This document shows positions 4,313 to 43,644 of a DNA stretch of 53,546 nt, one piece after another. Made by a program: the position numbers and the translations under genes. The stretch lies in contig JAKLGA010000009.1 of assembly GCA_022710975.1 (NCBI GenBank), forward strand, positions 1-53,546. The letters are read 5' to 3'. The notes below the pieces were generated by a model. The model did no database searches and was not told where the DNA came from. It saw only the letters and a list, made by a program, of their open reading frames with translations. The DNA is from Myxococcota bacterium. GTDB taxonomy: Bacteria > Myxococcota > B64-G9. Position 1 is the stretch's first letter; the number at the start of each line of letters is the position of its first letter.

Positions 4313-4323
4313 GCCGTCCCTCC

Positions 4324-13490: not shown

Positions 13491-13532
13491 TGGGCCCGTT
13501 GGGTGCCTGGGTTCGCGTCCACCGGGGGTGGC

Positions 13533-24390: not shown

Positions 24391-24515
24391 GCCCTGCCGC
24401 CTCCCGGGGAGTGTGTCCTCCTTGTACCCGCACCTGCAGGCGCCAGGCAAGCGCTGGCCCCGCGACCGGGGGCGTGGCATGCTGCCGCAGGGGGGTGAGC
24501 CATGGGAGGTGGTCC

Positions 24516-24887: not shown

Positions 24888-24968
24888 GGCGGCTCACGCG
24901 GGCCGCGCGCCCCGCCCGCCAGGCGCCGGTCCAGGCGCACGCGGGGCCGGGCACGCACGGCAGCCGTC

Positions 24969-27475: not shown

Positions 27476-27984
27476 TCGATGAACCTCGCCTCGCGGGTGA
27501 GGATCTCCAGGTAGCCCTCGCGGGCCTCCTGCAGGCGCTTGTCCTCGATCTTGAGGAACACGTACAGGATCTCGGCCTGGGCCACCCGGCGCTCGCCGCG
27601 CCTGGTGAGCACCTTGACCAGGGCCGAGTCCTCGTGGGCCGAGACGATCTCCGCCCGCAGGCGTAGCAGGTCGCCTGGCTTCACGAAGTCGCGGAACTTG
27701 GCCTTGACCGAGCTCAGCACGCAGCGCGGGCTGTAGCCGAGCTCGCCCTTCAGCGACAGCTCGAGCAGCGCCCCGCCGAGCTGGGCCATGCTCTCGATGA
27801 GCAGCGCGCCGGGGTAGACCGGTTGACCGGGGAAGTGGTGCTCGAAGCAGTCCTCGCTCAGCGCCACGGCCTTGAGGCCCTCGGCGTACTCCCCCCGCTT
27901 GACCTCCTCGATGCGATCGAGCAGCACGTAGCGCACGTCGTCACCCTCCCTCGCGCGGGCCGTCTTCCCCGTCGTCCCCGGCAT
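27472..27984 (-). CDS. FabZ/FabA-like 3-hydroxyacyl-ACP dehydratase (hotdog fold)
   Basis: EHHFPGQPVYPGALLIESMAQ motif (FabZ HxxxG..P..PG.L..E); ~165 aa; start may be ATG 27984 or GTG 27933 (track start overlaps nitroreductase 3' end by 44 nt). Confidence 0.8.
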   Translation of the reverse strand: MPGTTGKTARAREGDDVRYVLLDRIEEVKRGEYAEGLKAVALSEDCFEHHFPGQPVYPGALLIESMAQLGGALLELSLKGELGYSPRCVLSSVKAKFRDFVKPGDLLRLRAEIVSAHEDSALVKVLTRRGERRVAQAEILYVFLKIEDKRLQEAREGYLEILTREARFIE

Positions 27985-28621
27985 CCAGGACGCGCAGCAG
28001 CCGCTCGGCGGCCCGGCGCGGGGGCGCCGCGGGCGCCTCGGCCGGGTAGCCCACGGGCACCAGCGCGGCCACCTCCCAGCTGTCTTGAAGACCGAGCAGA
28101 CGGCCGAGCGCCGGCGCGGCCACCAGCGGGCCGGTCATCCAGCAGGCCCCCAGCCCGAGCGCGTGGGCGGCCAGGAGCAGGTTCTCGACGGCGGCCGCCA
28201 CCGAGGCCAGCGAGTCCTCGGCCTGGCGGCCGGCCGGGCTGCCCGCGGGCCGGGCCCGGCGCTGTTGGCTGGCGGCCAGGAGATCGGGCCCCGGGCGGTG
28301 GGCGAAGGCCAGCACCAGCGGGGCCTGGTCGAAGAAGCAGAAGGCGTCCAGGTAGCGGTTGGCGTCCTCCGCGGCCTCGGGCCGGAGCCCGGCCCGGAAG
28401 GGGGCCAGCGCCTCGTCCACCGCGGCCCGCAGGGCGGCCCGCCGCCCGGGCGCGCTCACCGCGAGGAGCCGCCAGGCCTGGCGGTTTCCGGCCGAGGGCG
28501 CCCAGCGCGCCGCCTCGGCCAGCTTCGAGACCAGCTCCGCCGGCACCGGCTCGGGCCGGAAGCGCCGGATCGAGCGCCGCCCGCGCAGGAGCTCGAGCAG
28601 CCGGGCGTAGCTCTCGGACAT
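27941..28621 (-). CDS. Nitroreductase-family flavoprotein
   Basis: RRSIRRFRPEPVPAELVSKLAEAARWAPSAGNRQAWRLL is the nitroreductase N-terminal signature; 226 aa; first gene of the minus-strand arm, GGGGAGG RBS. Confidence 0.8.
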   Translation of the reverse strand: MSESYARLLELLRGRRSIRRFRPEPVPAELVSKLAEAARWAPSAGNRQAWRLLAVSAPGRRAALRAAVDEALAPFRAGLRPEAAEDANRYLDAFCFFDQAPLVLAFAHRPGPDLLAASQQRRARPAGSPAGRQAEDSLASVAAAVENLLLAAHALGLGACWMTGPLVAAPALGRLLGLQDSWEVAALVPVGYPAEAPAAPPRRAAERLLRVLDAGDDGEDGPREGG

Positions 28622-29448: not shown

Positions 29449-30915
29449 ATGCCCGTGGCGCCCGGTGAGCTGCCCATCTACCTGGGCCTGTCCCAGGGCC
29501 TGTGCCGCGAGTGCCGGCGCGTGGTGCCGGCCCGCTACCTGGCCGACGCGCAGGGGGTGTGGCTGGAGCGGCTGTGCCCCGAGCACGGCCCGGCCCGGGC
29601 CCGGGTGGCCGAGAGCCTGGCCTGGTTCCAGGACGCGCTGCGGGCCCCCATGGCCCCGCGCCCGCCGGCGCAGGCCCGGCCGCGCAGCGCCGGCTGCCCG
29701 GAGAGCTGCGGGCCGTGCAGCTTCCACGCCCAGGCCTGCCACCTGCCGGTCTTCTCCATCACCAACGCCTGCGATCTGCGCTGCCCGATCTGCTTCACCT
29801 ACAACCGCGCCGACCGCCTGTACTTCATGCCGCCCGAGGAGTTCCAGCGCCAGATCGAGTTCGTGGTCCGGGCCACCGGCGGGACGCACCTGGTCAACGT
29901 GACCGGCGGCGAGCCGTTCATGCATCCGCGGCTCTTCGAGCTCCTGGCGCTCGCGCGGCGGCCCGAGATCGGACGCGTCACGGTGAACACCAACGGGCTG
30001 GCCATCGCCGCCGACCCGTCTCTGGCCCGGCGCCTGGCCGGGGTGGGCGCCTACGCCATCCTGTCGCTCGACACGCTCGACCGGGAGCGCAGCCTGCGGC
30101 TGCACGGGCGGGACATCGTGGACGAGAAGCGCCGCGCGCTCGACGCGCTCGAGGCGGCGGGCGTGCCCACGACGCTGCTGATGGTGCTGGCCGGCGGGAT
30201 CAACGAGGCCGACCTGGCCCCCGTCCTCGAGCTGGCCATGCGCCGCGAGCACGTGCGCTCCTTGACCATCCAGTGCATGACCTACACCGGCCAGGGCGGC
30301 GGCGCCTTCCTGCCGCGCCGGCACCTGCCGGTGGAGAGCGTCGAGCGCATGCTGGCCGAGGCCAGCGGCGGTTGGCTGCGCCCGGGCGACTTCATGCCGC
30401 TGCCCTCGGCCCACCCGCTGTGCTACGGGGTGAGCTACCTGGTGTGCGAGCCCCGGGCCGGGCTGCACCCCTTCGCCCGGCTGCTCAGCCGCGAGGTGCT
30501 GGCGCGTAGCCTGGTGGGAGGGTACCTGCTCGAGCCGACCGCGGAGCTCGAGACCTCGCTGCGGGACGCCATCGACCGGCTGTGGTCCGAGGGGGCCGAG
30601 CCCGGCCTCTTGCGGGCGCTGAAGAGCATGCTGACCACCATCTACCCGACCGGGCAGTCGCTGGGCGTGGCCGAGCGCCAGCGCCGGGCCGAGTCCACGG
30701 TCAAGACGCTGTACGTGCACGCGCACATGGACGAGGACACCTGGGAGGTGGGCCGGGCCATGCGCTGTCCGGACCAGGTGCCGGTGGACGCCGAGCGGCT
30801 GATCGGCGCCTGCAACTACAACCTGTTCTACCGCATGCGGGATGAGCGCTTCTGGGTGGAGCCCGGCTGCGCCGGCCGCGAGGCCGGGGGTTGCGGGCAG
30901 GAGCCAGCGCCATGA
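29449..30915 (+). CDS. Radical SAM enzyme with N-terminal rubredoxin-like Cys3His module and second Cys cluster, paralog 1
   Basis: N-term CRECRR...WLERLCPEHG (CxxC / CPxHG knuckles), then GCPESCGPCSFHAQAC, then rSAM core CDLRCPICF (CxxxCxxC) and GGEPF; C-terminal RAMRC...ACNYN; 488 aa. Confidence 0.85.
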   Translation: MPVAPGELPIYLGLSQGLCRECRRVVPARYLADAQGVWLERLCPEHGPARARVAESLAWFQDALRAPMAPRPPAQARPRSAGCPESCGPCSFHAQACHLPVFSITNACDLRCPICFTYNRADRLYFMPPEEFQRQIEFVVRATGGTHLVNVTGGEPFMHPRLFELLALARRPEIGRVTVNTNGLAIAADPSLARRLAGVGAYAILSLDTLDRERSLRLHGRDIVDEKRRALDALEAAGVPTTLLMVLAGGINEADLAPVLELAMRREHVRSLTIQCMTYTGQGGGAFLPRRHLPVESVERMLAEASGGWLRPGDFMPLPSAHPLCYGVSYLVCEPRAGLHPFARLLSREVLARSLVGGYLLEPTAELETSLRDAIDRLWSEGAEPGLLRALKSMLTTIYPTGQSLGVAERQRRAESTVKTLYVHAHMDEDTWEVGRAMRCPDQVPVDAERLIGACNYNLFYRMRDERFWVEPGCAGREAGGCGQEPAP

Positions 30916-32327
30916 GCGCCCGGCCGCTCCCCCCGCCGGTGGAGACCTTCGCCGCCACCCGGGCGCTGTGCAACCTGTGCGGCCGGTTGACCGACGCGCG
31001 CATCGCCTTCCAGGGCGAGGAGGTCTGGCTGGAGAAGCACTGCCTGGAGCACGGCCCGAGCCGCACGCTCGTCTCCACCGACCGGGCTGGCTACCTGCTG
31101 TCGCTCGGCTTCGTGAAGCCCGGCCAGGATCCGCGCGCGCGAGCCGTACGGGACTACCGGGGCTGCCCGGGCTCGTGCGGGCTGTGCCCGGCCCACCAGC
31201 AGCACACCTGCGTGCCCATCCTCGAGCTCACCGGGCGCTGCGACCTCGACTGCCCCGTGTGTCTGGTGCACGGCCAGGCCCAGCCCGAGCTCGGCCTGGA
31301 GGACGTGCGCCGGGTGGTGGCGGCGCTGCTCGGCTACGAGGGGCGGCTGCACATGCTGAACCTCTCGGGCGGCGAGCCCACCGCCCACCCCCGCTTCCTG
31401 GAGATCGTCGAGGAGCTCGCGGCCCGGCCGGAGATCGGCGTGCTCAGCGTGTCCACCAACGGCCTGCGGCTGGGCGAGGACGAGCGCCTGGCCCGGCGGC
31501 TGGCGGAGCTCAAGGTGGTGGTCTCGCTGCAGGTGGACGGGCTGGCCGGGGAGGGCGACCTCGCGCTGCGCGGGCGGCCGGGGCTGGCCGCGCTGAAGCG
31601 CCGGGCGCTGGAGCGGGTGCTCGCGGCCGGAGGGCGGCTGTCCCTGGTCTACACCCTGGAGCGCGGAGTGAACGAGGCCGGGCTCGCCGAGGTGCTCGCG
31701 CTGCTCTTCTCGAACGACGCCATCCTGAGCCTGATGGTCCAGCCCCTGGCCCACGCCCGGCGCGCCCCGGCGGGCGATCTGCGCGAGGTGCGCGCTGGCC
31801 TGACCACCCCCGAGGTGGTGGGGCTGCTGGTGGCCGCCTCCGGCGGGGTGCTCGAGCCGCGGGACCTCACCCCGCTGCCCTGCTCGCACCCGGCCTGTTT
31901 CTCCCTCACCTACCTGCTGCGCGCCCGGGGCGGCAAGCTGGTGTCGCTGCCCAGGCTGGTGGACGCGGACACCTACCTGGACGCCATCAAGAACCAGGCC
32001 CTGCTGCGCACCGACCCCGAGGGGCTGCAGGCCGTCAAGGACGCGCTCTACAAGCTGTGGTCGTCGAGCGGGGTGATACCGGACCGGGAGGACGTGCTGG
32101 CGACGGTCAAGCAGCTCCTGCTCGATCTCCAGCGGGTGGATCCGCGCGGCCCGCTGCGGGACGGCCTGGAGCTCGGGCTGACGAACGTGAAGTCGATCTT
32201 CATCCACAGCTTCATGGACCGCTACACCTTCGACCTGTCGCGGGCCATGAAGTGCTGCAACCACTACCCGCAGGCTGATGGCCGGATGCTGCCGGCCTGC
32301 ATGCGCAACGTCGGGCTGGCCCGCTGA
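30912..32327 (+). CDS. Radical SAM enzyme with N-terminal rubredoxin-like Cys3His module, paralog 2
   Basis: CNLCGR...WLEKHCLEHG, GCPGSCGLCPAHQQHTC, rSAM CDLDCPVC, GGEPT, C-terminal RAMKCC...ACMRN; AGGAG RBS 8 nt before ATG 30912, which overlaps paralog-1 stop (ATGA). Confidence 0.85.
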   Translation: MSARPLPPPVETFAATRALCNLCGRLTDARIAFQGEEVWLEKHCLEHGPSRTLVSTDRAGYLLSLGFVKPGQDPRARAVRDYRGCPGSCGLCPAHQQHTCVPILELTGRCDLDCPVCLVHGQAQPELGLEDVRRVVAALLGYEGRLHMLNLSGGEPTAHPRFLEIVEELAARPEIGVLSVSTNGLRLGEDERLARRLAELKVVVSLQVDGLAGEGDLALRGRPGLAALKRRALERVLAAGGRLSLVYTLERGVNEAGLAEVLALLFSNDAILSLMVQPLAHARRAPAGDLREVRAGLTTPEVVGLLVAASGGVLEPRDLTPLPCSHPACFSLTYLLRARGGKLVSLPRLVDADTYLDAIKNQALLRTDPEGLQAVKDALYKLWSSSGVIPDREDVLATVKQLLLDLQRVDPRGPLRDGLELGLTNVKSIFIHSFMDRYTFDLSRAMKCCNHYPQADGRMLPACMRNVGLAR

Positions 32328-32361
32328 ACAATCTCGCCCAGGCGGCGGGGGGAGGCGCTCC

Positions 32362-33414
32362 ATGGACGTCGATCTGTTCGGGCTGGAGATGAGCTGGGCG
32401 GACTTCGCCCAGGCGCTGGGGCTGGGCTTCCTGGCCTGGTTCTTCGTGCGCCACGTGCTGCTCGGGTTCATCGTGGTCGACCAGAACGAGCGCGCGGTGA
32501 AGACGAGCTTCGGGCGGGCCCTGCGCCTGGGGCAGACCACCACGCTGGCGCTGCCCATCGCCGAGGTCCTGAGCCCGGACCAGCGCAAGCGCTACTCGTT
32601 TCCCCAGGTGCGGGTCATGGGCCCGGGCTGGTACTTCAAGTGGCCCTGGCAGCGGGTGCACAAGGTGAGCATCGCCACCCGCACGGTGAACATGGCCTGG
32701 GATCCGGAGACCCCGTCCGCCAACCACAACGGCACCATGCTGGAGGCGGTCACCAAGGACCAGCTCAACACCGGGCTCACGGGCGACATCCGCTGGCGGG
32801 TGAGCGAGCAGAACCTGTACGCCTACCTGTTCGGGGTCAAGCGGCCCATCGCCCACGTCATGGGCTACTTCGTGTCCGTGCTGCGCGAGCGCATCGCCAA
32901 CTTCGAGGCCCCCAAGACCGCGGCCGCCCCGGCCGCCCAGGCGGGTCCGGGCGCGCTGCCTGGCTTGCCCATGGACGCCTCCATGGTGCAGGGGGTGAGC
33001 ATCAACGATCTGCGCAAGAACCTGCGCGACATCAACGACCACATGGACCGCGAGTGCCGCTCGTCCGAGGCGCGCTACGGCATCCTGCTGGACGCCTCGC
33101 TGATCACCGGCATCGATCCGCCGCCCGAGGTGGAGTCGGCCCTGGCGGCCATCAACACCGCCCACAACCAGGTGTCCTCCGACATCAGCCTGGCCCAGGC
33201 CGGGGCCGACCAGAAGATCGTCCAGTCCCGCCGGGCGGTGGAGATCGAGACCATGCGGGCCCAGGCCGAGGTGTCGCCGCTGACCGCCCAGGCCGAGCAG
33301 CTCGCGGCGCTGAAGGCGGCCGGGGGCAAGGAGGCGCTGGCCGCGTACCGGCGCTTCGTGCGCCTGGAGCTCTTCAAGCAAGCCGGCCAGGTGGTGCAGG
33401 AGGTGCGGTCATGA
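32362..33414 (+). CDS. SPFH/band-7 (stomatin/flotillin/HflK-like) membrane protein 1
   Basis: N-terminal TM LGLGFLAWFFVRHVLLGFIVV followed by VDQNERAVKTSFGR (SPFH start motif), long C-terminal coiled-coil-like Ala/Gln-rich region; GGGGGGAGG RBS. Confidence 0.8.
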   Translation: MDVDLFGLEMSWADFAQALGLGFLAWFFVRHVLLGFIVVDQNERAVKTSFGRALRLGQTTTLALPIAEVLSPDQRKRYSFPQVRVMGPGWYFKWPWQRVHKVSIATRTVNMAWDPETPSANHNGTMLEAVTKDQLNTGLTGDIRWRVSEQNLYAYLFGVKRPIAHVMGYFVSVLRERIANFEAPKTAAAPAAQAGPGALPGLPMDASMVQGVSINDLRKNLRDINDHMDRECRSSEARYGILLDASLITGIDPPPEVESALAAINTAHNQVSSDISLAQAGADQKIVQSRRAVEIETMRAQAEVSPLTAQAEQLAALKAAGGKEALAAYRRFVRLELFKQAGQVVQEVRS

Positions 33415-34376
33415 GCGAGAACGGCTGGCTGCTCACCGGGATCGCCTTCGGCGGCTTCTTCCTGGCCGTGCCCATCTTCCTGGGGTTCCTGCGCTTCCTC
33501 GGCTTCTACGCCGTGGTCCAGGAGCGCACCTGCCAGGTGTACGTGCTGTTCGGCAAGGTGGTCACGGTGATCGAGGAGCCCGGGCTCCACTTCCTGTGGC
33601 TCAAGATGGGCCTGAAGGCCCCGGTGGTGCGCTGGATCGGCAAGCTGTACGTGGTGGACATGCGGCTCGACCAGACCTACATGCGCTCCCAGCCGGTCAA
33701 CTCCGAGGAGGGCGCCCCCATGGGCATCGGCATCTGGTACGAGATGTACATCTCGGACCCGCTGGCCTTCCTGTTCAAGAACACCGACCCGCGCGGGTCG
33801 CTCCGGGCCAACGTGTCCAACGCCACGGTGCGCTGCCTGTCGAACATGAAGCTCGGCGAGATGCTCCAGACCCGGCACCTCATGTCCGAGACGGTGCGCA
33901 ACGAGGTCTCGCCCAAGAGCCACGAGTGGGGCTACCGGCTGGGCTCGGTGTACATCCGCAAGGTGCACTTCCGCGACGCGGGCATGATCGCGCAGATCGA
34001 GGAGAAGGTGGTGAACCGCCTGCGCCAGGTCACCTCGGCCATCCGGCAGGAGGGCCAGAACCAGGTCAGCCTCATCTCCAGCGCGGCCGAGCGCGAGGCG
34101 GCCGTGGACTTCGCCAAGGCCGCGGCGCTCCGGCCGGAGATCGTGGGCGCGGCGCTCCGGCGCATCGGCCAGGATGCGGAGGTGAGCGAGGCGCTGTTCG
34201 AGGTGCTGGAGAACCAGGCGCTGGTGGCGAGCGGCGCCCGGCTCACCCTGGTGCCACCCGGCCAGGCGGTGTTGCCGGCGCTCCTGGCGGCCCGCGCCGC
34301 GCCGGCGTCCGGCCCGGCGCCCGCGGGCCGTCCCGTCCCGGCCCCGGGTAGGTTCCCCGTGCCCACCCAGCCGTGA
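33411..34376 (+). CDS. SPFH/band-7 membrane protein 2
   Basis: TM LLTGIAFGGFFLAVPIFLGFL, SPFH motif VVQERTCQVYVLFGKVVTVIEEPGLHF; start overlaps paralog-1 stop (ATGA). Confidence 0.8.
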   Translation: MSENGWLLTGIAFGGFFLAVPIFLGFLRFLGFYAVVQERTCQVYVLFGKVVTVIEEPGLHFLWLKMGLKAPVVRWIGKLYVVDMRLDQTYMRSQPVNSEEGAPMGIGIWYEMYISDPLAFLFKNTDPRGSLRANVSNATVRCLSNMKLGEMLQTRHLMSETVRNEVSPKSHEWGYRLGSVYIRKVHFRDAGMIAQIEEKVVNRLRQVTSAIRQEGQNQVSLISSAAEREAAVDFAKAAALRPEIVGAALRRIGQDAEVSEALFEVLENQALVASGARLTLVPPGQAVLPALLAARAAPASGPAPAGRPVPAPGRFPVPTQP

Positions 34377-34473
34377 CCCGCCGATCGAGCTGCGGCCCGG
34401 GCTCCACTCAGGGTTGACTACGGAGTCGAACGGGTTCAGATTTTCTTAAGAAGTGAGGAGATAGGCTTCGGGG

Positions 34474-34932
34474 TTGGCGAGGGCGCACTTGGATTCTGTC
34501 TGCCATATCGAGGGCTTCGAGCCCAGGCTCCTGGGCATCCTGTGCCACTGGTGCTCCTATACCGGCGCGGACCAGGCCGGCGCGGCGAAGCTGCCCTGCC
34601 CGCCGAACCTGCGCATCGCGCGGGTGATGTGCAGCGGGCGGGTCGAGCCCGAGCTCATCCTGCGCGCCTTCCTGCAGGGGGCGGACGGGGTGCTGGTGTG
34701 CGGGTGCCACCCGGGCGACTGCCACTACCTGGGAGGCAACTGCAAGGCCGCCCTGCGCGTCGGCCTGCTGCGACGGGTGCTCGCGCAGCTCGGCATCGCG
34801 CCGGGCCGGCTGCGGCTCGAGTGGGTCAGCGCCAGCGAGGGGGAGCGTTTCTCGCGCGTCGCCCAGGAGGCGGTGGACGCGATGCGCGCGCTCGGCCCGC
34901 TGGGGCTCGGCGGCGGGCAGGTGGCGCCATGA
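34474..34932 (+). CDS. MvhD-like iron-sulfur protein (methyl-viologen-reducing hydrogenase delta subunit family)
   Basis: ILCHWCSYTGADQAG...RVMCSGRVEPELILRAFLQGADGVLVCGCHPGDCHYLGGN is the MvhD/FlpD signature; TTG start, GAGGAG upstream. Confidence 0.75.
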   Translation: MARAHLDSVCHIEGFEPRLLGILCHWCSYTGADQAGAAKLPCPPNLRIARVMCSGRVEPELILRAFLQGADGVLVCGCHPGDCHYLGGNCKAALRVGLLRRVLAQLGIAPGRLRLEWVSASEGERFSRVAQEAVDAMRALGPLGLGGGQVAP

Positions 34933-36884
34933 GCCGGCCGGACGCCGCCCCGGTGCGGGTCTACCTGTGCGAGTGCGGGCCCATCCTCCGGGAGGCCCTG
35001 GATCTCGCCGCCCTGGGCCACGCCCTGGCCGGCGCGCCCGGGGTCGAGGCCGTCGAGCGGCAGGCCACCCTGTGCTCGCCCGAGGGCCAGGCCTGGCTCG
35101 GGCGCGAACTCGCGGCCCACCCGGGCTGCCGCCCGGTGGTGGTGGCCTGCTCGCCCCGCGAGCACGGCCGGACGTTCATGGACGTCTGCCGCAGGGCCGG
35201 GACCAACCCCTACCTGCTGGCCATCGCCAACGTCCGCGAGCAGTGCGCCTGGGTCACGCGGGAGCCGGCCCGGGCGCTGGAGAAGGCGATCGCGCTCGGC
35301 CGGGCGGCCATCGCCAGGGCCAGGCTGCAGCAGGAGCTCGAGGAGCAGGAGATCGATTGCTGCCCGGACGCCCTGGTCCTCGGCGCGGGCGTGGCCGGGC
35401 TCACCGCGGCGCTGCTGCTGGCCCGGGCCGATCGGCGGGTCGTCCTGGTGGAGCGCGCCCCGGCCATCGGCGGCCGGACCGTGCTGCTGTCCGAGCTGTT
35501 CCCGCACCTCGAGTGCGCCTCCTGCGCCCTGGTGCCCCTGATGGACGAGGTGCTGCACCACCCGAACATCGAGGTGCTGACCTCGAGCCAGGTCGAGCGT
35601 GTGCTGGGCTCGTTCGGCAACTTCCAGGTCGGCATCCGCCGGCGGGCCCGGTTCGTCGATCCGGCCGCCTGCTATGGCTGCGGGACCTGCCACGCGGCCT
35701 GCCCGGTCGAGGGGCCCAACGAGCACCAGCAGGGCCTGGGGCGGCGCAAGGCGATCTACCTGCCCTACGCCGGAGCGCTGCCCAACGTCTCCACGCTGGA
35801 CGCCGAGCGCTGCCTGCGCCGGACCGGCCAGGCCTGCGACGCCTGCCAGAAGGCCTGCCCCTTCGGCGCCATCGACCTGCAGGCCCAGGAGGCGGTGCTC
35901 GAGCGGCGGGTGGGCGGGATCGTGGTGGCCACGGGCGCCGACACCCCCCTGCGGGGCGCGGCCGCGCGGATGCCCCGGGTGATCACCGCCGCCGCCCTGG
36001 AGCGCATGCTCGACCCGGCCGGGCCCACCGGCGGGGAGCTCCGCCCGGCCGGGTTGCCGCCGCCGCGCTCGGTGGCGCTGGTGCACTGCGCCACCGCGGA
36101 TGGCCGGGCGCCCGCACCGACCTGCTCCAAGGTGTGCTGCCAGGCCCTGGCCAAGTACGCCCACGCGCTGCGCGCGCGGCTGCCGGACGCCAAGCTCACG
36201 CGCCTGGTCTGGGACGAGTGCGCGGGCGGCAAGGGGGCGCGCGAGTTCGTGCGCGACGCCTTCAGGGCGCCGGGCGTCGAGAGCGTGCGCCTGCTGCCGG
36301 GCGAGCGGCTCGAGGGGCTCGAGGAGCGTGGGGACTCGGTCTGGCTGAAGCTGCGGCGCGGCCGGCGGCTGGAGGTGGTGCAGGCCGAGCTGGTGGTGCT
36401 GGCCACGGCCATGGAGGGGGCGAGCCAGGTCGAGGCGCTGGCCGGGCGGATGCGCCTCGGGCTGGATCCGGCCGGCTTCGTGGTCGAGGAGAACGACCGG
36501 CTGGCCTCCTACCGCACGCGGGTGGAGGGGATCTTCGTGGCCGGCTGCGCCCAGGGGCCCAAGGACGTGCAGGAGTCGAGCGCCCAGGCGGCCGGGGCGA
36601 GCGGGGCCCTGCTGTCCGCGCTGGTGCCGGGGCGGAAGCTCAAGCTGGAGCCCGCGGTGGCCCGCGTGGACCCGGCCCTGTGCGGCGGGTGCCGCGCCTG
36701 CGTGGGCGCCTGCCCCTTCCAGGCGGTGCGCTACGACCAGGAGCGGCGCGCGGCCCAGGTGACGGAGGTGCTGTGCCGGGGCTGCGGGACCTGCGCCGCG
36801 GGCTGCCCGGCCGGGGCCATCCAGGCCCTGCACTTCACGGCGGAGCAACTGGGCGGAGAGATCTCCGCGTTACTGGAGGGATGA
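34929..36884 (+). CDS. HdrA-like FAD-dependent iron-sulfur flavoprotein (heterodisulfide reductase subunit A family)
   Basis: FAD motif LVLGAGVAGLTAALLLA, ferredoxin-type motifs CYGCGTCHAACP and CGGCRACVGACP, further CxxC clusters; 651 aa; start overlaps MvhD stop. Confidence 0.8.
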   Translation: MSRPDAAPVRVYLCECGPILREALDLAALGHALAGAPGVEAVERQATLCSPEGQAWLGRELAAHPGCRPVVVACSPREHGRTFMDVCRRAGTNPYLLAIANVREQCAWVTREPARALEKAIALGRAAIARARLQQELEEQEIDCCPDALVLGAGVAGLTAALLLARADRRVVLVERAPAIGGRTVLLSELFPHLECASCALVPLMDEVLHHPNIEVLTSSQVERVLGSFGNFQVGIRRRARFVDPAACYGCGTCHAACPVEGPNEHQQGLGRRKAIYLPYAGALPNVSTLDAERCLRRTGQACDACQKACPFGAIDLQAQEAVLERRVGGIVVATGADTPLRGAAARMPRVITAAALERMLDPAGPTGGELRPAGLPPPRSVALVHCATADGRAPAPTCSKVCCQALAKYAHALRARLPDAKLTRLVWDECAGGKGAREFVRDAFRAPGVESVRLLPGERLEGLEERGDSVWLKLRRGRRLEVVQAELVVLATAMEGASQVEALAGRMRLGLDPAGFVVEENDRLASYRTRVEGIFVAGCAQGPKDVQESSAQAAGASGALLSALVPGRKLKLEPAVARVDPALCGGCRACVGACPFQAVRYDQERRAAQVTEVLCRGCGTCAAGCPAGAIQALHFTAEQLGGEISALLEG

Positions 36885-36912
36885 CGGGGCCCCCACGGAA
36901 AGGAGCTGACCG

Positions 36913-37134
36913 ATGGCCGAGATCAAGATGGACACCAAGGGAATGCGTTGCCCGCAGCCCGTGCTCAAGGTCGCCGCGCGCGCGCCGGAGCTGAAGGCCG
37001 GCGACCTGCTGGAGGTGATCGGCGACTGCCACACCTTCGAGGACGACATCCGCAAGTGGTGCCAGCGCATGGGCAAGACCCTGCTGGCGGTGAACCGGGA
37101 CGGCGCGGTGGTGACCGTGCGCATCCAGTTCTGA
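36913..37134 (+). CDS. TusA-family sulfurtransferase-like protein
   Basis: 73 aa with CPxP motif DTKGMRCPQPVLK at the canonical position. Confidence 0.8.
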   Translation: MAEIKMDTKGMRCPQPVLKVAARAPELKAGDLLEVIGDCHTFEDDIRKWCQRMGKTLLAVNRDGAVVTVRIQF

Positions 37135-37153
37135 GGCGGGGAGGACCCAGGCG

Positions 37154-38002
37154 ATGAGCAAGGACAAGCAGGCAGGCGACCTCCAGACCGCGCACCGGAC
37201 CTGCGCGGCGCTGGCGAAGGCGCTGGACGGTCTGGCCCAGGGGACCCTGGACGTCCCGGTGCCGTCGGCGGCCGGCGTCGAGGGGCTGGACCCGGTGTGC
37301 CTGGCGGCCAAGCGGCTGCAGGCGGAGCTGCGGCGCGCGGCCGGGGAGCTCGAGCAGGAGCGGAGCCAGAACCACCAGTCGAGCATGGAGATGGCCCTCG
37401 GGCTGTCCGAGAGCTTCGAGGTGCTGACCAAGGTCTGCCAGGGCAACCTCGACGCGCGGGTGGGCAAGCAGGTGGAGGAGTCACCCGAGGAGCTGATCGC
37501 CCAGCTGGCCAAGCTGCTGAACGCCACCATCGAGAACATCAGCCGCCAGCAGAACGTGATCCACGAGCTGTCGACTCCGGTGCTGCAGCTCTGGGACGAC
37601 ATCCTGGTGCTGCCGGTGATCGGCCTGGTGGACTCGCGCCGCAGCCTGGACATCATGGAGCGGCTGCTGCACCAGATCGTCGAGAAGCAGGCGCGCTACG
37701 TGATCATGGACATCACCGGCGTGGACCTGGTGGACACCAAGACCGCCGACCACTTCATCAAGGTGATCAAGGCGGCCGAGCTGCTGGGGACCACCTGCGT
37801 CCTGTCAGGCATCCAGCCCGCGGTGGCGCAGACCCTGGTCGAGATCGGGGTCGACCTGACCTCGATCCTGACGCTGCGCGATCTGTCGGAGGGGCTCAAG
37901 GAGTGCCTGCGGCTGAAGGAGGTCCAGGCCATTTCGGAGATGAAGATCCAGACGCAAGCGAGCGTGCGCGATGCCGGGTCTCGGCAACCTGCAGGTCGTT
38001 AG
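37154..38002 (+). CDS. RsbR-like stressosome sensor (N-terminal sensing domain + C-terminal STAS)
   Basis: C-terminal half ...VLPVIGLVDSRRSLDIMERLLHQIVEKQARYVIMDITGVDLVDTKTADHFIKVIKAAELLGTTCVLSGIQPAVAQTLVEIG is a STAS domain in RsbR arrangement. Confidence 0.7.
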   Translation: MSKDKQAGDLQTAHRTCAALAKALDGLAQGTLDVPVPSAAGVEGLDPVCLAAKRLQAELRRAAGELEQERSQNHQSSMEMALGLSESFEVLTKVCQGNLDARVGKQVEESPEELIAQLAKLLNATIENISRQQNVIHELSTPVLQLWDDILVLPVIGLVDSRRSLDIMERLLHQIVEKQARYVIMDITGVDLVDTKTADHFIKVIKAAELLGTTCVLSGIQPAVAQTLVEIGVDLTSILTLRDLSEGLKECLRLKEVQAISEMKIQTQASVRDAGSRQPAGR

Positions 38003-38396
38003 GCTGCGCGGCAACCTGCTCCTCTCGCTGCAGGGCGAGCTGAGCGACGCCGCGGTGAACGCGCTCAAGGAGACGGTGGCCGAGAAGGTCTCGCGCTCCC
38101 AGGGCGTGACCGGCCTGATCATCGACGTGTCCGGCATCGACGTGATGGACAGCTACATCTCCAGGACCATCCGGGATCTGAGCGTGATCTGCAAGCTGAT
38201 GGGGGTGACCACGGTGCTCGCCGGCATGGATCCCCATGTGGCCATGACCCTGGTCGAGATGGGCCTGGACTTCTCCGGTGTCCACACCGCGCTGAACCTC
38301 GACGTGGCGCTGGACCGGTTGAACGAGGTGGCCGCGCGGCCACGGCGCAGGCGGGGACAGCGGAGGGCGGCGCCGCGCGCGGGCAGGGCGGGCTGA
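37971..38396 (+). CDS. RsbS-like STAS-domain protein (anti-sigma-factor antagonist family)
   Basis: VVRLRGNLLLSLQGELSDAAVNALKETV...GLIIDVSGIDVMDSYISRTI...TVLAGMDPHVAMTLVEMGLD; ~140 aa. Confidence 0.7.
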   Translation: MPGLGNLQVVRLRGNLLLSLQGELSDAAVNALKETVAEKVSRSQGVTGLIIDVSGIDVMDSYISRTIRDLSVICKLMGVTTVLAGMDPHVAMTLVEMGLDFSGVHTALNLDVALDRLNEVAARPRRRRGQRRAAPRAGRAG

Positions 38397-38426
38397 GGCT
38401 GAGGCGGGGGCGGAGGGCGGATCGCA

Positions 38427-38996
38427 GTGGGCATGGCGTTCGAGATCGGCTCCATCCAGCGGCCGGCCGCGGGCCAGCTCGTGTGCGGTGACTCGCTCAC
38501 CGTCGTGGACGGGCCGAGCCTGTTCATCGCCCTGGCGGACGGGCTGGGCCACGGCCCGGCCGCGGCCGAGGCCGCCCGGCCGTTCTGCGAGTTCGCCGCG
38601 GCCCATCGGGCCGAGCCGCTGGACCAGATCCTGGTGAAGGCCTCGGAGGCCCTGGCGCACACGCGCGGGGCGGCTGGGGCGCTGGTGCGCATCGACAGCC
38701 AGGCCAGGAGCCTCGAGTTCTCCGGGATCGGGAACATCGAGCTGAAGAGCCTGCTGAACAGCGCGATCCAGCCCTTCTGCCGACCGGGCATCCTCGGGCG
38801 CGGCAGGCCGCGGGTCAGGGTGGACGCCTTCCCCGTGGCCGCGGGCGAGCTGCTGGCCCTGTTCTCGGACGGGGTGTCCAGCCGTTTCAGCCTGGACCAG
38901 TACCGCCACCTGCGGCCCCATGACCTCGCCCGGGCCCTGCTGGCGGAGCACGGCAAGCGGCACGACGACGCCACCTGCGTGGTGGTGCGCTGCTAG
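38427..38996 (+). CDS. PP2C-type serine phosphatase (RsbX/SpoIIE family)
   Basis: CGDSLTVVDG....IALADGLGHG ... LLALFSDGV: metal-binding Asp/Gly motifs of PP2C phosphatases; 189 aa. Confidence 0.7.
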   Translation: MGMAFEIGSIQRPAAGQLVCGDSLTVVDGPSLFIALADGLGHGPAAAEAARPFCEFAAAHRAEPLDQILVKASEALAHTRGAAGALVRIDSQARSLEFSGIGNIELKSLLNSAIQPFCRPGILGRGRPRVRVDAFPVAAGELLALFSDGVSSRFSLDQYRHLRPHDLARALLAEHGKRHDDATCVVVRC

Positions 38997-39021
38997 GCCC
39001 CCGGGTGAGGGAGGAGGCGAG

Positions 39022-39489
39022 GTGCGAGAGTCCTGGCGCATCCAGTGTCCGGCCGACGCCCTGTGGCTCGGCGGGTGCGCGCGGCGCTTCGCCGAGGAGC
39101 AGGGCTTCCCGGGGGAGGACCCCTCGCGGATCGGCCTGGCGGTGAGCGAGCTGGTGAACAACGTGCTCAAGTACGCCGGCCTGGGGCGGCTCGTGCTCGA
39201 GCTCGACGAGGCGGAGCCGGACCTGCTGGTGATCGTGGTGGAGGACGAGGGCGCGGGCATCCAGGATCTGCCGACGGCGCTGCAGGACGGCGTCTCGGAA
39301 GGGCGCAGGGTGAGCGGCGCGGCCGGCCAGGTGGCAGGCCGACGCGGCCTCGGTTGCGGGCTGGGCGCGGTGCAGCGCCTGATGGATGGGGTGGAGATCT
39401 CGAACCGGCCCGAGGGCGGGGTCAGGATCCGGGCGACCAAGCGGCGCGTGCGGGGCCGGTGGCCCGGACGTTCGGCGCAGGAGGGTTGA
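39022..39489 (+). CDS. RsbT/RsbW-like anti-sigma regulatory serine kinase (GHKL ATPase)
   Basis: GTG start after GGAGGAGG; AVSELVNNVLKYAG (N-box), VEDEGAGI (G1), GCGLGAVQRLMD (G2). Confidence 0.7.
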   Translation: MRESWRIQCPADALWLGGCARRFAEEQGFPGEDPSRIGLAVSELVNNVLKYAGLGRLVLELDEAEPDLLVIVVEDEGAGIQDLPTALQDGVSEGRRVSGAAGQVAGRRGLGCGLGAVQRLMDGVEISNRPEGGVRIRATKRRVRGRWPGRSAQEG

Positions 39490-39494
39490 ACCCG

Positions 39495-40166
39495 ATGGAA
39501 GACGTCAGAACGCTGGACGAGCTGTCGAAGAAGCTCACGCTGGTCCTGTCCGATTACCTGTCGCAGGTCATCGTCCCGGCGGTGCTGCGGACGGCCGTGC
39601 GCCGCGCCGTCCCGGACCCCAAGGTGGTGACGATGGCCGATCGGAAGAACCTCCTGCAGCAGCTCCAGCGCAGCGTGAACCTCTACATGGCCAACCGCAC
39701 CGCCTTCGAGAAGTGCAGCCAGCAGCTCGAGGACGTGCTGCTCGGCGACCTGCCCGCGCCCAGGCCCGAGGACCGGCTGCGCACCGTCCAGGTCAAGATC
39801 GACGCCGACATCGTGACCGCGCGGGCCGTGGTCCGCGACATGTGCCGCACCGAGGGCGTGGCGCGGGCGCTCGAGGTGACGCTCGCCACGGTCATCTCGG
39901 AGCTCGCGCGCAACATCGTCCTGTACGCGGGCTCCGGGGTCTTGACCCTGACCGTGCTCGAGGGCAAGCCGAGCGTGCTGCAGATCCAGTCCATCGACTC
40001 GGGCCCCGGGATCCGGGACCTGGCGTCCGTCCTGGACGGCAGCTACCGCTCCAAGACCGGCATGGGCCTGGGCCTGGCCTACGTGCGCAAGGTGATGGAC
40101 GAGGTGGTGATCGACTCCAGCCCGGGCAAGGGCACCTCGATCACCGCCAGGAAACGGCTGGATTAG
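39495..40166 (+). CDS. Second GHKL-type regulatory kinase with N-terminal extension
   Basis: VISELARNIVLYAG, QSIDSGPGI, GMGLGLAYVRKVMD; 223 aa. Confidence 0.65.
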   Translation: MEDVRTLDELSKKLTLVLSDYLSQVIVPAVLRTAVRRAVPDPKVVTMADRKNLLQQLQRSVNLYMANRTAFEKCSQQLEDVLLGDLPAPRPEDRLRTVQVKIDADIVTARAVVRDMCRTEGVARALEVTLATVISELARNIVLYAGSGVLTLTVLEGKPSVLQIQSIDSGPGIRDLASVLDGSYRSKTGMGLGLAYVRKVMDEVVIDSSPGKGTSITARKRLD

Positions 40167-40203
40167 GCTCGGGAATCCTGGAAAGCTCCGCGCGCCTCCG
40201 TCG

Positions 40204-40233
40204 TTGACCTCGGTCGCGGGAAGCGGTTAGCAT
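40204..40233 (+). promoter_or_regulatory. Candidate sigma70-type promoter TTGACC-N18-TAGCAT upstream of FGE-domain gene
   Basis: -35 TTGACC 40204-40209, -10 TAGCAT 40228-40233; CCAGGAGG RBS at 40253-40260; ATG 40270. Confidence 0.35.
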
Positions 40234-40269
40234 GGGCCCCGAACCCCGCTCCCCAGGAGGCCTGCTCCG

Positions 40270-41646
40270 ATGAGATGCGCGCCCTGGATCGCCCTCCTCC
40301 CGTGTCTGGTCGCCGCGGGCGCCCAGGCGGCCGACAACCGCCCGGTGCTGGCCGTCTTCAACGTGGAGGGCAAGCGCATCAAGCTGGACAAGGATCTGGC
40401 CGACGCGCTGGCGGACCACGCCGCCGCCCTGCTGACCGAGGCCGGGAGCTTCCAGGTCGTGCCGCGCGATCAGCTCAAGGAGCGGCTCACCCAGCAGAAG
40501 AGCGCCTCTTACCAGGCCTGCTACGACCAGAGCTGCCAGCTCGAGATCGGCAAGGAGCTGGCGGCCGAGAAGAGCCTGGCCATCCAGGTGATCAAGATAG
40601 GCTCCTACTGCACGGTGAACGCCACCCTGTACGACCTGAAGAAGTCCACCACCGAGAAGGCGGCCACCTCCGAGAAGGCGAACTGCAAGGACGAGGACGC
40701 GCTGCTGACCGCCCTGGAGAGGGCCATCCACAAGCTGGCCCTGCCCTCCGGCGCGCCGCCGCCCGAGCCCGTCAAGGCGCGCGGGCCGGACGTGGCCGCG
40801 CTGCCCAGGCCCGTGCCCGAACCCCCCAGGCCCGCGCCCGCCGCGCCCGCCGCGCCCGGCGTGGAGATGATCGACGTGCCCGGGGGCTTCGCCTGGCGAG
40901 GGTGCAACAAGGGCATCGATCCCGACTGCCCCGAGGACGAGCAGCCGGGGAAGCTCCTCGAGCTCAAGGCCTTCGCCATCGACAAGACCGAGGTGACGGT
41001 CGCCCAGTACATGCAGTGCGTGTCCGCCGGGCGCTGCAGCCAGCCCGATCCCGCGGCTATGCAGGCGGCCTCGTCCTACGGCTTCGGCTACGCCTACAGC
41101 TTCGGCGGGGCGGCGGGCGGCTCGGGCGGCGTGGGCCTCAACTTCCAGCAGCCCGGCCGCGAGAACCACCCGATGAACGGGGTCACCTGGCGCCAGGCGC
41201 GCGAGTACTGCGCTTACGCAGGCAAGCGCCTGCCGACCGAGGCCGAGTGGGAGAAGGCCGCCCGCGGCCCGAAGGGCGTGCTCTACGCCTGGGGCATGGA
41301 TCCACCCACCTGTGAGCGGGCGGTCATGAGCGACGACGAGAACGGGGAGGGCTGCGGCCAGGGCGGCACCGCCGAGGTCTGCTCCCGGCCCGAGGGCAAC
41401 AGCCCCTTCGGGCTGTGCGACATGGCGGGCAACGTGTGGGAGTGGGTCGAGGACATGTACGCCGAGGACTACTACACCAAGAGCCCGGGCGCGGACCCGA
41501 CCGGCCCCAGGAGCGGCAGCCAGCGCTCGCTGCGCGGCGGCTCGTACAAGTACGGGATCAAGGAGATGCGCGCCTCCTCCCGCTCGCAGTACGGCGAGGA
41601 GCAGGTGGCGGACGACATCGGCTTCCGCTGCGCCAAGAGCCTGTAG
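40270..41646 (+). CDS. Secreted protein with N-terminal ~125-aa domain of unknown function plus C-terminal formylglycine-generating-enzyme (FGE/SUMF1)-like domain
   Basis: Signal peptide MRCAPWIALLPCLVAAGAQA; FGE-like motifs HPMNGVTWRQAREYCAYAGKRLPTEAEWEKAARG, GNVWEWVEDMY, RGGSY; N-domain shared with next gene. Confidence 0.8.
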   Translation: MRCAPWIALLPCLVAAGAQAADNRPVLAVFNVEGKRIKLDKDLADALADHAAALLTEAGSFQVVPRDQLKERLTQQKSASYQACYDQSCQLEIGKELAAEKSLAIQVIKIGSYCTVNATLYDLKKSTTEKAATSEKANCKDEDALLTALERAIHKLALPSGAPPPEPVKARGPDVAALPRPVPEPPRPAPAAPAAPGVEMIDVPGGFAWRGCNKGIDPDCPEDEQPGKLLELKAFAIDKTEVTVAQYMQCVSAGRCSQPDPAAMQAASSYGFGYAYSFGGAAGGSGGVGLNFQQPGRENHPMNGVTWRQAREYCAYAGKRLPTEAEWEKAARGPKGVLYAWGMDPPTCERAVMSDDENGEGCGQGGTAEVCSRPEGNSPFGLCDMAGNVWEWVEDMYAEDYYTKSPGADPTGPRSGSQRSLRGGSYKYGIKEMRASSRSQYGEEQVADDIGFRCAKSL

Positions 41647-41781
41647 CCTGCCTACCAGCGCCCGCTTTTGCACGTCTCCGGTTTTCGTGATTTGCTGGGC
41701 GGCGTCCCTGCGAACATGCATGTTTCAGCGCTTGGATCTGCCGCCCTTCCCGGAGAGGGCGGCGCAGCCGGGGAGGCGGGC

Positions 41782-43644
41782 ATGAGGCTGTGGTCGAATC
41801 GATGGATGTGGGTCGTCCTGGTGTGCGGCGCGGCCCTGGGGGCGTGCGCGCCGCCGCTCGAGTGGGCCGTGGTGCGCGACAGCGCCGACCGCTCGCTGTG
41901 GCAGCAGTGCGTGGAGGGTCGGGCCTGTCAGGACGTGGCCTACGCGGCGCAGGACGGCCGGTTGCCGAAGGCCCTGACGAAGCTGCTGCGCGAGACCCTC
42001 ATGGCCTCTCAGCTGAACCCCGACCTGGTGGCCTACCTGCTCCAGCAGGGCGCGGATCCGAACTCGGAGTATAGCGGTCTGCCGGTGGCCACCTACCTGC
42101 TCGGCCCGTCGGATGGCCGCAGACCATCCTCTGGCCTGGTTCTCCCCACGCCCGCGGGCAGCGGTGGCTCCTTGCGAGACGAAGCCAGCATTATCAAAGT
42201 GCTGGGGGTGCTCGTCCAGGGCGGGCTCGACCTCAAGGCCGACTTCGATGCATCCTTCAAGTCACTCCTCTTCCTGGCTGTTCAGGGAGGGATGGCTCAG
42301 GTCGTGGGCTACCTGGTCGACCACGGCGCCAGGCTGAAGTCGAGCCAGTGGGACAGCCAGCCCATCGATGAGGCCATGCGACTTCGGAATCAGGCCATCA
42401 TCGCCAAGCTCTCGGGTGTCGGTGCCGTCGGCCCTGGACAACTTGCGCAGGCAATTCAGCAGGGGCAGTGGGATCTACTCCCTGGCCTGTGTGAGAAGGT
42501 GGATGGCGGACAACGATTCAACCCGAATCCCAATGTCAACGTATCCGCGCTGTACCTCGTGGTCTCCCGCCTGGCTTCGAATCGGGAAAAGAGGGCGGTG
42601 GCGGAGGCGTGTATCGAGACCCTCATGCGGCGTGGATTCGATCCCAACGAGGTTTATGCGGGCGGGTTCACTCCCTTCACCTACTGCTGCTACTCCAAGC
42701 TGTGCATCGAGTCCCCGCGCGCCATGAAGGCCTTCCTCGGGAAGGTGGATCCGGACGTCCTGTACGGTGGCATGGGAAGAGTCGCGCTCCACAATGCGGT
42801 CGAAGCCGGACAGACCGAGGTGGTGGGCCTCCTGCTCGCCGACGGCATCAACACGAACCTGCAGGACTCCCAGGGCTCGACGCCTCTGCACCTGGCGGTG
42901 GACCGCGGGGATGCCAACATCGTGAGGATGTTGCTGGAGCACGGCGCGAATCCGGCCCTCAAGGACACCGTCGGCCGGACACCGCTGGAGCAGGCCGTGG
43001 CCGCGAAGCGGAAAGATCTGGTCGCGTTGCTGGCGAGCAAGGTCAAGGCCTCTGAGGTGAGGGATGCTCAGCTCCGGGCGGAGCAGGCGCGCAACAAGGC
43101 CGAGGCGGACAAGGTGCTGGCCGACGCGAAGATCGCGGCCGCGCGCATCGAGGCTGCTCCGGCTGTAGGTGGGACAGCCAGTGGCGGAGAGGGTGTGGAC
43201 GACTGGGTGCCGCCCGGGCCCCGGCGCGAGAAGCCGGCCAAGTTGCCCGTGGTTGCGGTGTTCGACGTGGAGCTCAAGGGCGCCAGCATGGGCAAGGCCA
43301 CCCAGGCCAACCTGAGCGAACTGCTCTCCATCCAACTCGTGGAGACCGGTTACTTCCAGGCTGTGCCGCGGGAGGATCTCAAGAAGCGCCTGACCGACGT
43401 GAAGGCCGGCTCCTACAAGCCATGCTACGATCAGTCCTGCCAGATCGAGCTGGGCCGCGAGCTGGCCGCGGAGCAGACGCTCTCAGTCAAGGTGATGAAG
43501 ATCGGCGACGAGTGCTCCTCGACGCTGACCCTCTTCGACCTCAAGAAGGGCACTGCCGTCGGCGCGGTGACGGCCATGAGCCGGTGCGCCGAGGGCGAGG
43601 TGGTCAAGACCCTACGAAGGCTCGTGGATCGCTTGACGTACTAG
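41782..43644 (+). CDS. Ankyrin-repeat lipoprotein with C-terminal copy of the same ~125-aa unknown domain
   Basis: Leader MRLWSNRWMWVVLVCGAALGAC; ankyrin repeats (GSTPLHLAVDRGDANIVRMLLEHGANP..., GRTPLEQAV...); C-terminus VVAVFDVELKG...SYKPCYDQSCQIELGRELAAEQTLSVKVMKIGDECSSTLTLFDLKKG aligns with N-terminus of preceding gene. Confidence 0.8.
   Translation: MRLWSNRWMWVVLVCGAALGACAPPLEWAVVRDSADRSLWQQCVEGRACQDVAYAAQDGRLPKALTKLLRETLMASQLNPDLVAYLLQQGADPNSEYSGLPVATYLLGPSDGRRPSSGLVLPTPAGSGGSLRDEASIIKVLGVLVQGGLDLKADFDASFKSLLFLAVQGGMAQVVGYLVDHGARLKSSQWDSQPIDEAMRLRNQAIIAKLSGVGAVGPGQLAQAIQQGQWDLLPGLCEKVDGGQRFNPNPNVNVSALYLVVSRLASNREKRAVAEACIETLMRRGFDPNEVYAGGFTPFTYCCYSKLCIESPRAMKAFLGKVDPDVLYGGMGRVALHNAVEAGQTEVVGLLLADGINTNLQDSQGSTPLHLAVDRGDANIVRMLLEHGANPALKDTVGRTPLEQAVAAKRKDLVALLASKVKASEVRDAQLRAEQARNKAEADKVLADAKIAAARIEAAPAVGGTASGGEGVDDWVPPGPRREKPAKLPVVAVFDVELKGASMGKATQANLSELLSIQLVETGYFQAVPREDLKKRLTDVKAGSYKPCYDQSCQIELGRELAAEQTLSVKVMKIGDECSSTLTLFDLKKGTAVGAVTAMSRCAEGEVVKTLRRLVDRLTY

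Follow-up and report, generated by a model that had tools for sequence, protein, structure and literature searches.

A five-gene stressosome-type module with two RsbT-family kinases lies directly behind MvhD/FlpD, HdrA, and TusA genes in a Myxococcota bacterium

We analyzed a stretch of 53,546 nucleotides (nt) from a Myxococcota bacterium (contig JAKLGA010000009.1 of assembly GCA_022710975.1, positions 1 to 53,546, forward strand), referred to here as the window, in which five genes of a stressosome-type signaling module had been predicted at positions 37154 to 40166 of the plus strand. All five genes are present at these positions, and the public gene calls for identical contigs, originating from a Myxococcota metagenome-assembled genome and from anaerobic-digester-type metagenomes, contain the same five genes. 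The first, R (37154-38002, +), encodes 282 amino acids (aa) with a STAS domain at residues 147 to 234 (Pfam E = 2e-15). It is followed by S (37971-38396, +; 141 aa), a second STAS protein (Pfam E = 1.3e-14), by X (38427-38996, +; 189 aa), a SpoIIE/PP2C phosphatase (Pfam E = 1.6e-10), and by two kinase genes whose coordinates are given after start-codon correction, namely, K1 (39022-39489, +; 155 aa; HATPase_c_2, Pfam E = 5.9e-13), with a GTG start codon behind the motif GGAGG, and K2 (39495-40166, +; 223 aa; HATPase_c_2/HATPase_c). The genes are tightly packed: S overlaps R by 32 nt, and the spacings between S and X, X and K1, and K1 and K2 are 30, 25, and 5 nt, respectively.

The two STAS proteins correspond to RsbR and RsbS. 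R combines a variable N-terminal domain with a C-terminal STAS domain that is most similar to RsbR; among solved structures, the best match was RsbR of Vibrio vulnificus (7O0I; E = 4.5e-33), and RsbR of Listeria matched with an E value of about 1e-25. The approximately 125 N-terminal residues of R are helical and contain two HAMP-like motifs, with a weak match to the Pfam family McpB_HAMP. This part of R differs by locus, since related loci (labeled here L plus a number) have a PAS domain (L094, 7337-8578) or a GAF domain (L178, 5668-6768; L179, 1394-2494), whereas HAMP-like sequences are found in the clade of the window; these variable N termini match the variable sensor domains typical of RsbR. 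S, which is encoded beside R, is a single-STAS protein of the RsbS type. Its best structural match was MtS of Moorella (2VY9; E = 5e-20), and RsbS of Listeria and Bacillus subtilis produced similar scores. The phosphorylatable residues of both proteins are conserved: the putative phospho-acceptors Thr195 (motif VDT) and Thr227 (motif AQT) of R align with the threonines of the corresponding VDT and AQT motifs, which are conserved in Listeria RsbR, and the putative phospho-acceptor Ser61 of S aligns with the conserved DS serine of Listeria RsbS. The Asp-Ser motif of S is invariant in all 30 family members compared.

X has the properties of a short feedback phosphatase of the RsbX type. It consists of the PP2C catalytic domain only, and its matches among solved structures include MtX, the phosphatase of the Moorella stressosome (3ZT9; E = 3e-20), as well as RsbX of B. 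subtilis (3W40; E = 1.7e-11). In the four PP2C motifs checked, each Asp is conserved in all of 30 family members, apart from one gap in one sequence. X has no N-terminal regulatory domain, and a phosphatase of the RsbU type, with an N-terminal RsbT-binding domain, was found neither in X nor, as a separate domain, elsewhere in the module.

To classify the two kinases, both were scored against hidden Markov models (HMMs) that were built from the canonical RsbT and RsbW sequences of retrieved loci. K2 reached 121 bits with the RsbT HMM (121 to 147 bits within its family) and 7.4 bits with the RsbW HMM (no more than 13 bits within the family). The corresponding scores of K1 were 74.5 bits (family, 45 to 100 bits) and 11.7 bits (family, no more than 25 bits). 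Since the scores of K1 and K2 favor the RsbT over the RsbW HMM, both belong to the RsbT family, and neither has the profile of an anti-sigma kinase of the RsbW/SpoIIAB type. The 125 C-terminal residues of K2 are 43.5% identical to RsbT of Cytobacillus; for K1, the identity is 38.8% over a shorter stretch. Both proteins have intact N, G1, and G2 boxes, as is to be expected of an RsbT-type kinase with an intact ATP-binding site, and the ATP lid of K1 carries an insertion. Judged by these sequence comparisons, K2 is more closely related to RsbT and is its orthologue; K1 is a divergent paralogue and is not RsbW-like. The HMM scores and identities thus exchange the labels of the original prediction, in which the fourth gene (K1) had been taken as the RsbT-like kinase and the fifth (K2) as an additional one. 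A neighbor-joining tree of the kinase domains had placed K1 near RsbW of Bacillales, which would have made it a candidate anti-sigma factor. Reciprocal HMM scoring did not bear this out, and because that scoring clearly assigns K1 to the RsbT family, we regard its grouping with RsbW as a long-branch artifact.

The kinase domain of K2 spans approximately residues 98 to 223, and about 95 aa of additional N-terminal sequence lie in front of it (39495-39779). This extension is predicted with high confidence to fold into a four-helix bundle, the predicted local distance difference test score being 92 for the whole protein and 86 for the extension alone. It produced no Pfam match, and a single-sequence phmmer search over 1.84 billion representatives detected no sequence relatives of it. 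Among the K2 homologues in the matches listed, 68 of 120 have a length of 200 to 260 aa, which is long enough for the extension, and it was present in all 55 homologues that were aligned. Two cysteines of K2 are often conserved, namely, Cys74 in helix 4 of the N-terminal bundle (44 of the 55 sequences) and Cys117 in helix 1 of the kinase domain (46 of the 55); canonical RsbT of B. subtilis presumably has an Ala at the latter position. The two cysteines do not form an obligate pair, as their presence and absence do not covary. A thiol-based input through these residues is possible but unsupported.

The five-gene set is not confined to the window. Exact-protein look-ups, together with genome and metagenome scans, identified R, S, K2, X, and K1 together in at least 25 distinct loci, all locus counts given here being lower bounds. 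A word-indexed search with K1 yielded only 15 matches. The matches listed in the metagenome scan were mostly canonical RsbT and added few useful loci. The carriers include many Myxococcota (genomes of Polyangia and Nannocystaceae from metagenomes as well as the isolate Polyangium sp. 6x1, a cultivable carrier whose module, L016, is of the TusA-less type), one member of the Riflebacteria, one of CSSED10-310, and others. The gene order in these loci is almost always R-S-K2-X-K1, which corresponds to the canonical rsbR-rsbS-rsbT-rsbX followed by K1, so that the orthologues of K1 form the fifth gene of the module. The window, with R-S-X-K1-K2, departs from this order. The unusual arrangement noted in the original prediction is thus real in that it differs from that of Bacillus, but it is a local rearrangement and not a trait of the family. 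Through their additional kinase gene and the extension of their RsbT, these five-gene modules stand out as a family of their own, which is widespread in Myxococcota.

The module was then compared with known systems. (i) It resembles the minimal rsbRSTX modules of Moorella thermoacetica (MtR-MtS-MtT-MtX) and of Vibrio vulnificus and Vibrio brasiliensis in possessing an RsbR-type protein, RsbS, an RsbT-type kinase, and a short feedback PP2C and in lacking sigB and the RsbU/V/W cascade; its best structural matches (7O0I, 2VY9, and 3ZT9) come from such systems. It differs from them by the fifth gene, the second RsbT paralogue K1, by the four-helix bundle at the N terminus of its RsbT orthologue, by its gene order, and by the HAMP-like N terminus of R, where Vibrio RsbR has a heme globin domain. 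In addition, the known modules are neighbored by two-component or GGDEF genes, whereas the neighbors in the family of the window are TusA, HdrA, and MvhD with or without hydrogenase genes. (ii) With the rsbR-S-T-U-V-W-sigB-X operon of B. subtilis and Listeria, it shares homologous R, S, T, and X proteins and the conserved phospho-acceptors, but it has no RsbU, no RsbV-type antagonist (only two STAS genes are present), no RsbW-like kinase according to the HMM scores, and no adjacent sigma gene. (iii) Modules of Janthinobacterium, Bradyrhizobium, and Massilia likewise have two STAS proteins and a single PP2C together with multiple kinases of the RsbT family. In these, however, one kinase is fused to the PP2C domain, a third kinase forms the N terminus of a protein of about 600 aa, and neither an N-terminally extended RsbT nor a linkage to TusA/HdrA is found. 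This Proteobacterial multi-kinase STAS module is itself widespread (Bradyrhizobium, Janthinobacterium, Massilia, and Pseudoduganella; L035, L038 to L043, L045, L048, L052, and others) and has the order R, S, short RsbT-like kinase, kinase-PP2C fusion of about 330 to 365 aa, and a protein of about 590 to 610 aa whose N terminus is the closest RsbT-like domain; these lengths are approximate because open reading frames (ORFs) were started at the first start codon.

The presence of two kinases and two STAS proteins, in a ratio of 1:1, also permits a simpler arrangement, in which no stressosome-like assembly is formed and R with one kinase and S with the other would act as two antagonist pairs that share one phosphatase. 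The N terminus of R, which is HAMP-like and not a sensor of the globin or PAS type, is in line with such an arrangement. On the other hand, the STAS domains of both R and S are most similar to proteins that build the icosahedral core, and the R-S-T-X core of the relatives matches the minimal stressosome operon. Two separate pairs appear rather improbable.

The module belongs to a longer run of genes on the plus strand. Upstream of R lie the genes for an MvhD/FlpD-like iron-sulfur protein (34474-34932, +; Pfam FlpD, E = 3.6e-47), an HdrA-like flavoprotein with 4Fe-4S ferredoxin domains (34929-36884, +; Pfam Fer4 families and Pyr_redox_2/FAD_binding), and the sulfur carrier TusA (36913-37134, +; 73 aa; Pfam E = 5.6e-18), with the active-site Cys13 in the motif CPQP (CPxP). 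FlpD is the first gene of a block that is conserved in other loci, and HdrA overlaps it by 4 nt. The end of TusA is separated from the start codon of R by 19 nt, in agreement with the 20 bp reported initially, and most genes of the block are preceded by a Shine-Dalgarno-like sequence. At the other end, the next gene, which encodes an FGE-sulfatase-domain protein, starts 103 nt downstream of K2. The promoter that had been proposed in front of it was recovered as a match to the sigma-70-like consensus (40204-40233, +), and this was the only match in a consensus scan of positions 34000 to 41000. The same scan found no terminator-like site in this region and neither a promoter-like nor a terminator-like site inside the conserved block. 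From these features, the module is most likely cotranscribed with MvhD/FlpD, HdrA, and TusA, and the promoter-like site at 40204-40233 likely marks the 3' boundary of the transcription unit.

Of the neighboring genes, TusA shows the most consistent association with the module. Orthologues that are 57 to 68% identical to TusA of the window are located immediately upstream of R in nine other loci (L007, L008, L028, L093, L094, L097, L098, L177, and L180), resulting, with the window, in 10 loci with the order TusA-then-R. MvhD/FlpD and HdrA precede TusA in 9 of these 10. The FlpD orthologues, which are 54 to 62% identical to that of the window, occupy the same relative position in all of the nine other loci except L177, and HdrA orthologues with identities of 45 to 55% are found directly upstream of TusA in eight other loci. 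In seven of the 10 loci, the small and large subunits of an Mvh-type [NiFe] hydrogenase are encoded between FlpD and HdrA; they are absent from L097 and the window. This composition, with MvhD/FlpD and HdrA flanking the module and hydrogenase subunits and HycI added in relatives, resembles that of the electron-bifurcating Mvh-type [NiFe] hydrogenase/HdrA clusters (mvhDGA-hdrA). HycI, a hydrogenase maturation protease, adjoins K1 in eight loci (all of the nine except L097). It lies directly downstream of K1 in seven of them, including L007, where both are fused; in L094, it is convergent and located beside hypCDEF. The fusion in L007 (9300-10226) is a single in-frame ORF in which K1 and HycI are joined by a Pro/Ala/Ser-rich linker, and in L008 and L093, the genes for K1 and HycI overlap by 4 nt. 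In L177 (CSSED10-310, 43% guanine-plus-cytosine [GC] content), the sequence TusA-module-HycI is kept without adjacent HdrA or hydrogenase genes, and in L176 (Riflebacteria), TusA and a fragment of FlpD are found about 2.5 kb from the module.

The 10 TusA-linked loci differ widely, with pairwise identities of 27 to 73% for K2 and 45 to 77% for HdrA and GC contents of 43 to 72%. They are thus too deeply diverged to represent one recent lineage that was sampled repeatedly, and because orthologous TusA precedes R in nine diverged loci besides the window, the place of the module behind TusA is not accidental. The concern, raised with the original prediction, that orthologous modules might never adjoin the HdrA cluster in other genomes does not apply to HdrA and TusA, which recur next to the module. 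A purely fortuitous adjacency without functional meaning would agree with the many module loci that have no TusA/HdrA neighbors; it is nevertheless very hard to reconcile with the same order and orientation of TusA and R in 10 loci with deeply diverged proteins and with the conservation of the flanking FlpD/HdrA and HycI genes, and we attach next to no weight to it.

A different set of upstream genes had been connected with the module in the original prediction, which suggested that the module may respond to membrane or redox stress by regulating the "lipid-modification" cluster. This region (29449-34376, +), located just upstream of FlpD-HdrA-TusA, comprises two adjacent radical-SAM genes with an HMPTM-type zinc ribbon followed by two SPFH/Band7 genes. 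With NCBIfam models, the radical-SAM proteins scored 155 and 179 bits for Tes, the tetraether-lipid synthase (cutoff, 450), and 185 and 218 bits for TrsS (cutoff, 490), and thus look, by sequence, like a sister subfamily to Tes/TrsS outside the assigned families. Location on the same strand at a short distance speaks for a regulatory connection. However, none of the related loci has the Tes/TrsS-like pair or the two Band7 genes next to the module, the only upstream radical-SAM gene found elsewhere being of an unrelated SPASM type (L098). Furthermore, the largest same-strand gap, of about 100 to 112 nt, separates the second Band7 gene from FlpD, exactly where the conserved block begins. The proposed link to these genes was therefore not supported, and their regulation by the module is highly unlikely.

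With regard to the output, the original prediction stated that the window contains no sigma-factor partner and proposed a partner-switching module wired to a non-sigma output. The former was corroborated: no Sigma70 domain was detected in the ORFs of the window that were screened with Pfam, a screen that was not exhaustive because a few ORFs had no Pfam match, and genes for sigma or anti-sigma factors were found neither among these ORFs nor among the genes listed for 12 related loci. The latter agrees with this absence, but the idea is not new. According to PMC9237108 and PMC4976288, both of which cite Pane-Farre 2005, rsbRSTX modules without sigB are widespread and coupled to varied outputs, for example to a diguanylate cyclase (Moorella) or to two-component proteins (Vibrio). 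As such modules are already established, the lack of a sigma partner is in itself no novelty. In the literature searched, we found no description of the second kinase, of the N-terminal extension of RsbT, of a module of five genes that combines both, or of its placement in an operon with TusA, HdrA, and hydrogenase genes. Nor did we find a report that links a stressosome to hydrogenase/Hdr, myxobacteria, or TusA, which is a weak negative since most matches met only the non-stressosome terms or, in the TusA query, only the non-TusA terms.

Classical partner switching on an unlinked transcription factor also has to be considered. Here, K1, for instance, would be the anti-sigma factor or switch for a distant sigma factor, and the position in the operon would reflect coexpression only. 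Kinases of the HATPase_c_2 family include anti-sigma factors, weak NCBIfam matches to the SpoIIAB, RsbW, and RsbA models were obtained, and more than half of the module loci have no TusA/HdrA, so that the target must often be encoded elsewhere. In opposition to this, K1 and K2 score far better with RsbT than with RsbW profiles, and the grouping of K1 with RsbW in the neighbor-joining tree was not upheld by them; the module contains neither a third, RsbV-like STAS protein nor an RsbU-type phosphatase; and no sigma gene was found beside any locus examined. We consider an unlinked sigma factor a possible but doubtful target.

Taken together, these data make it probable that the module represents a modified minimal stressosome (rsbRSTX) and that its partner is the cytoplasmic MvhD/HdrA/TusA complex of redox and sulfur-relay proteins, not a sigma factor or the products of the upstream radical-SAM genes. 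Because the modules are repeatedly embedded in mvhD-(mvhG-mvhA)-hdrA-tusA-...-hycI operons, we infer that their input or output concerns this complex. A number of observations weigh against this assignment. (i) In about 14 of the approximately 25 module loci, neither TusA nor HdrA nor FlpD is encoded nearby (e.g., L012, L013, L016, L019, L092, L178, and L179), and some of these TusA-less modules adjoin other genes, such as H-NOX (L012, L015, and L092) or pyruvate:ferredoxin oxidoreductase (L179). (ii) In a neighbor-joining tree of concatenated R, S, K2, and X sequences, the TusA-linked modules fall into one larger clade but are not monophyletic; as they form no clade of their own, the module can work without these partners. 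(iii) The window itself contains neither hydrogenase nor HycI genes, and the fusion of K1 to HycI was seen on a single metagenomic contig (L007). (iv) Only the short distances between the genes and a weak scan for consensus sites, at a genomic GC content of about 72%, speak for cotranscription, and the assembly of a large complex, the kinase activity, and the contact with TusA or HdrA are predictions.

By analogy with the systems of Bacillus, Listeria, Moorella, and Vibrio, R and S would form a STAS-domain scaffold that holds the RsbT-type kinase K2 and perhaps also K1. A stimulus would cause phosphorylation of S at Ser61 and of R at Thr195 and Thr227 and thereby the release of the kinase, and the PP2C phosphatase X would reset the system. 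The extra domain of K2, or alternatively K1, may serve as an adaptor to the target. The released kinase may act on TusA or on HdrA/MvhD; for relatives, HycI or the maturation of the hydrogenase would be further candidate targets. A more specific version of this scheme, which we put forward only as a tentative and rather uncertain proposal, is a stressosome that serves a metabolic enzyme complex instead of transcription. It would sense or gate MvhD-HdrA-TusA posttranslationally, along with the [NiFe] hydrogenase and HycI in relatives; either it would respond to the persulfide state of TusA or to the redox state, or the released kinase would control the maturation or activity of the complex. The physical link might be provided by the four-helix bundle of K2 with the frequently conserved Cys74 and Cys117 or by K1, the protein that is fused to HycI in one relative.

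For the question of what stressosomes sense and what they control outside the Firmicutes, this module offers concrete candidates. Its main value lies in a tractable set of candidate partners, since it shares what appears to be one operon with proteins that are amenable to biochemistry, namely, a sulfur carrier, the flavoprotein HdrA, and MvhD, as well as an Mvh-type hydrogenase and its maturation protease in relatives. If the proposed connection is correct, it would be an example of phospho-signaling attached to a hydrogenase/Hdr gene cluster of the electron-bifurcating type.

Several further observations concern the surroundings of the module. In three TusA-less loci, an H-NOX gene (HNOB, Pfam E = 9e-37) follows directly after K1 (L012, 11730-12275; L015, about 3950-4492; L092, 4384-4926), which suggests a gas- or heme-based partner in that sublineage. 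In L179, a V4R/XylR_N protein precedes the GAF-STAS R protein, and the genes for pyruvate:ferredoxin oxidoreductase (POR) and PTA follow K1. Eukaryotic-like Ser/Thr kinases are encoded near some TusA-less module loci; such kinases are common in Myxococcota anyway. The only other signaling gene noticed in the window encodes a hybrid sensor histidine kinase (13503-15452, +; PAS-PAS-HisKA-HATPase-REC), and a hybrid kinase is also located divergently upstream of the FlpD block in L097. On the minus strand, positions 23638 to 28621 contain a set of genes of the fatty acid synthesis type that encode a FabG-like short-chain dehydrogenase/reductase, a ketoacyl-synthase-like protein, a FabA-like dehydratase, and a nitroreductase. 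For the region from 24.5 to 26.3 kb, with a GC content of 77 to 81%, the one ORF tried (24811-26400, -) had no Pfam match. Downstream of the module, the N terminus of the FGE-sulfatase-domain protein (40270-41646, +) and the C terminus of the following ankyrin-repeat protein (41668-43644, +) share a domain of about 130 aa with 45% identity (E = 3e-31). This domain contains Cys and is LpoB/DUF3280-like, and an ankyrin-repeat gene also adjoins the TusA-module block in L177.

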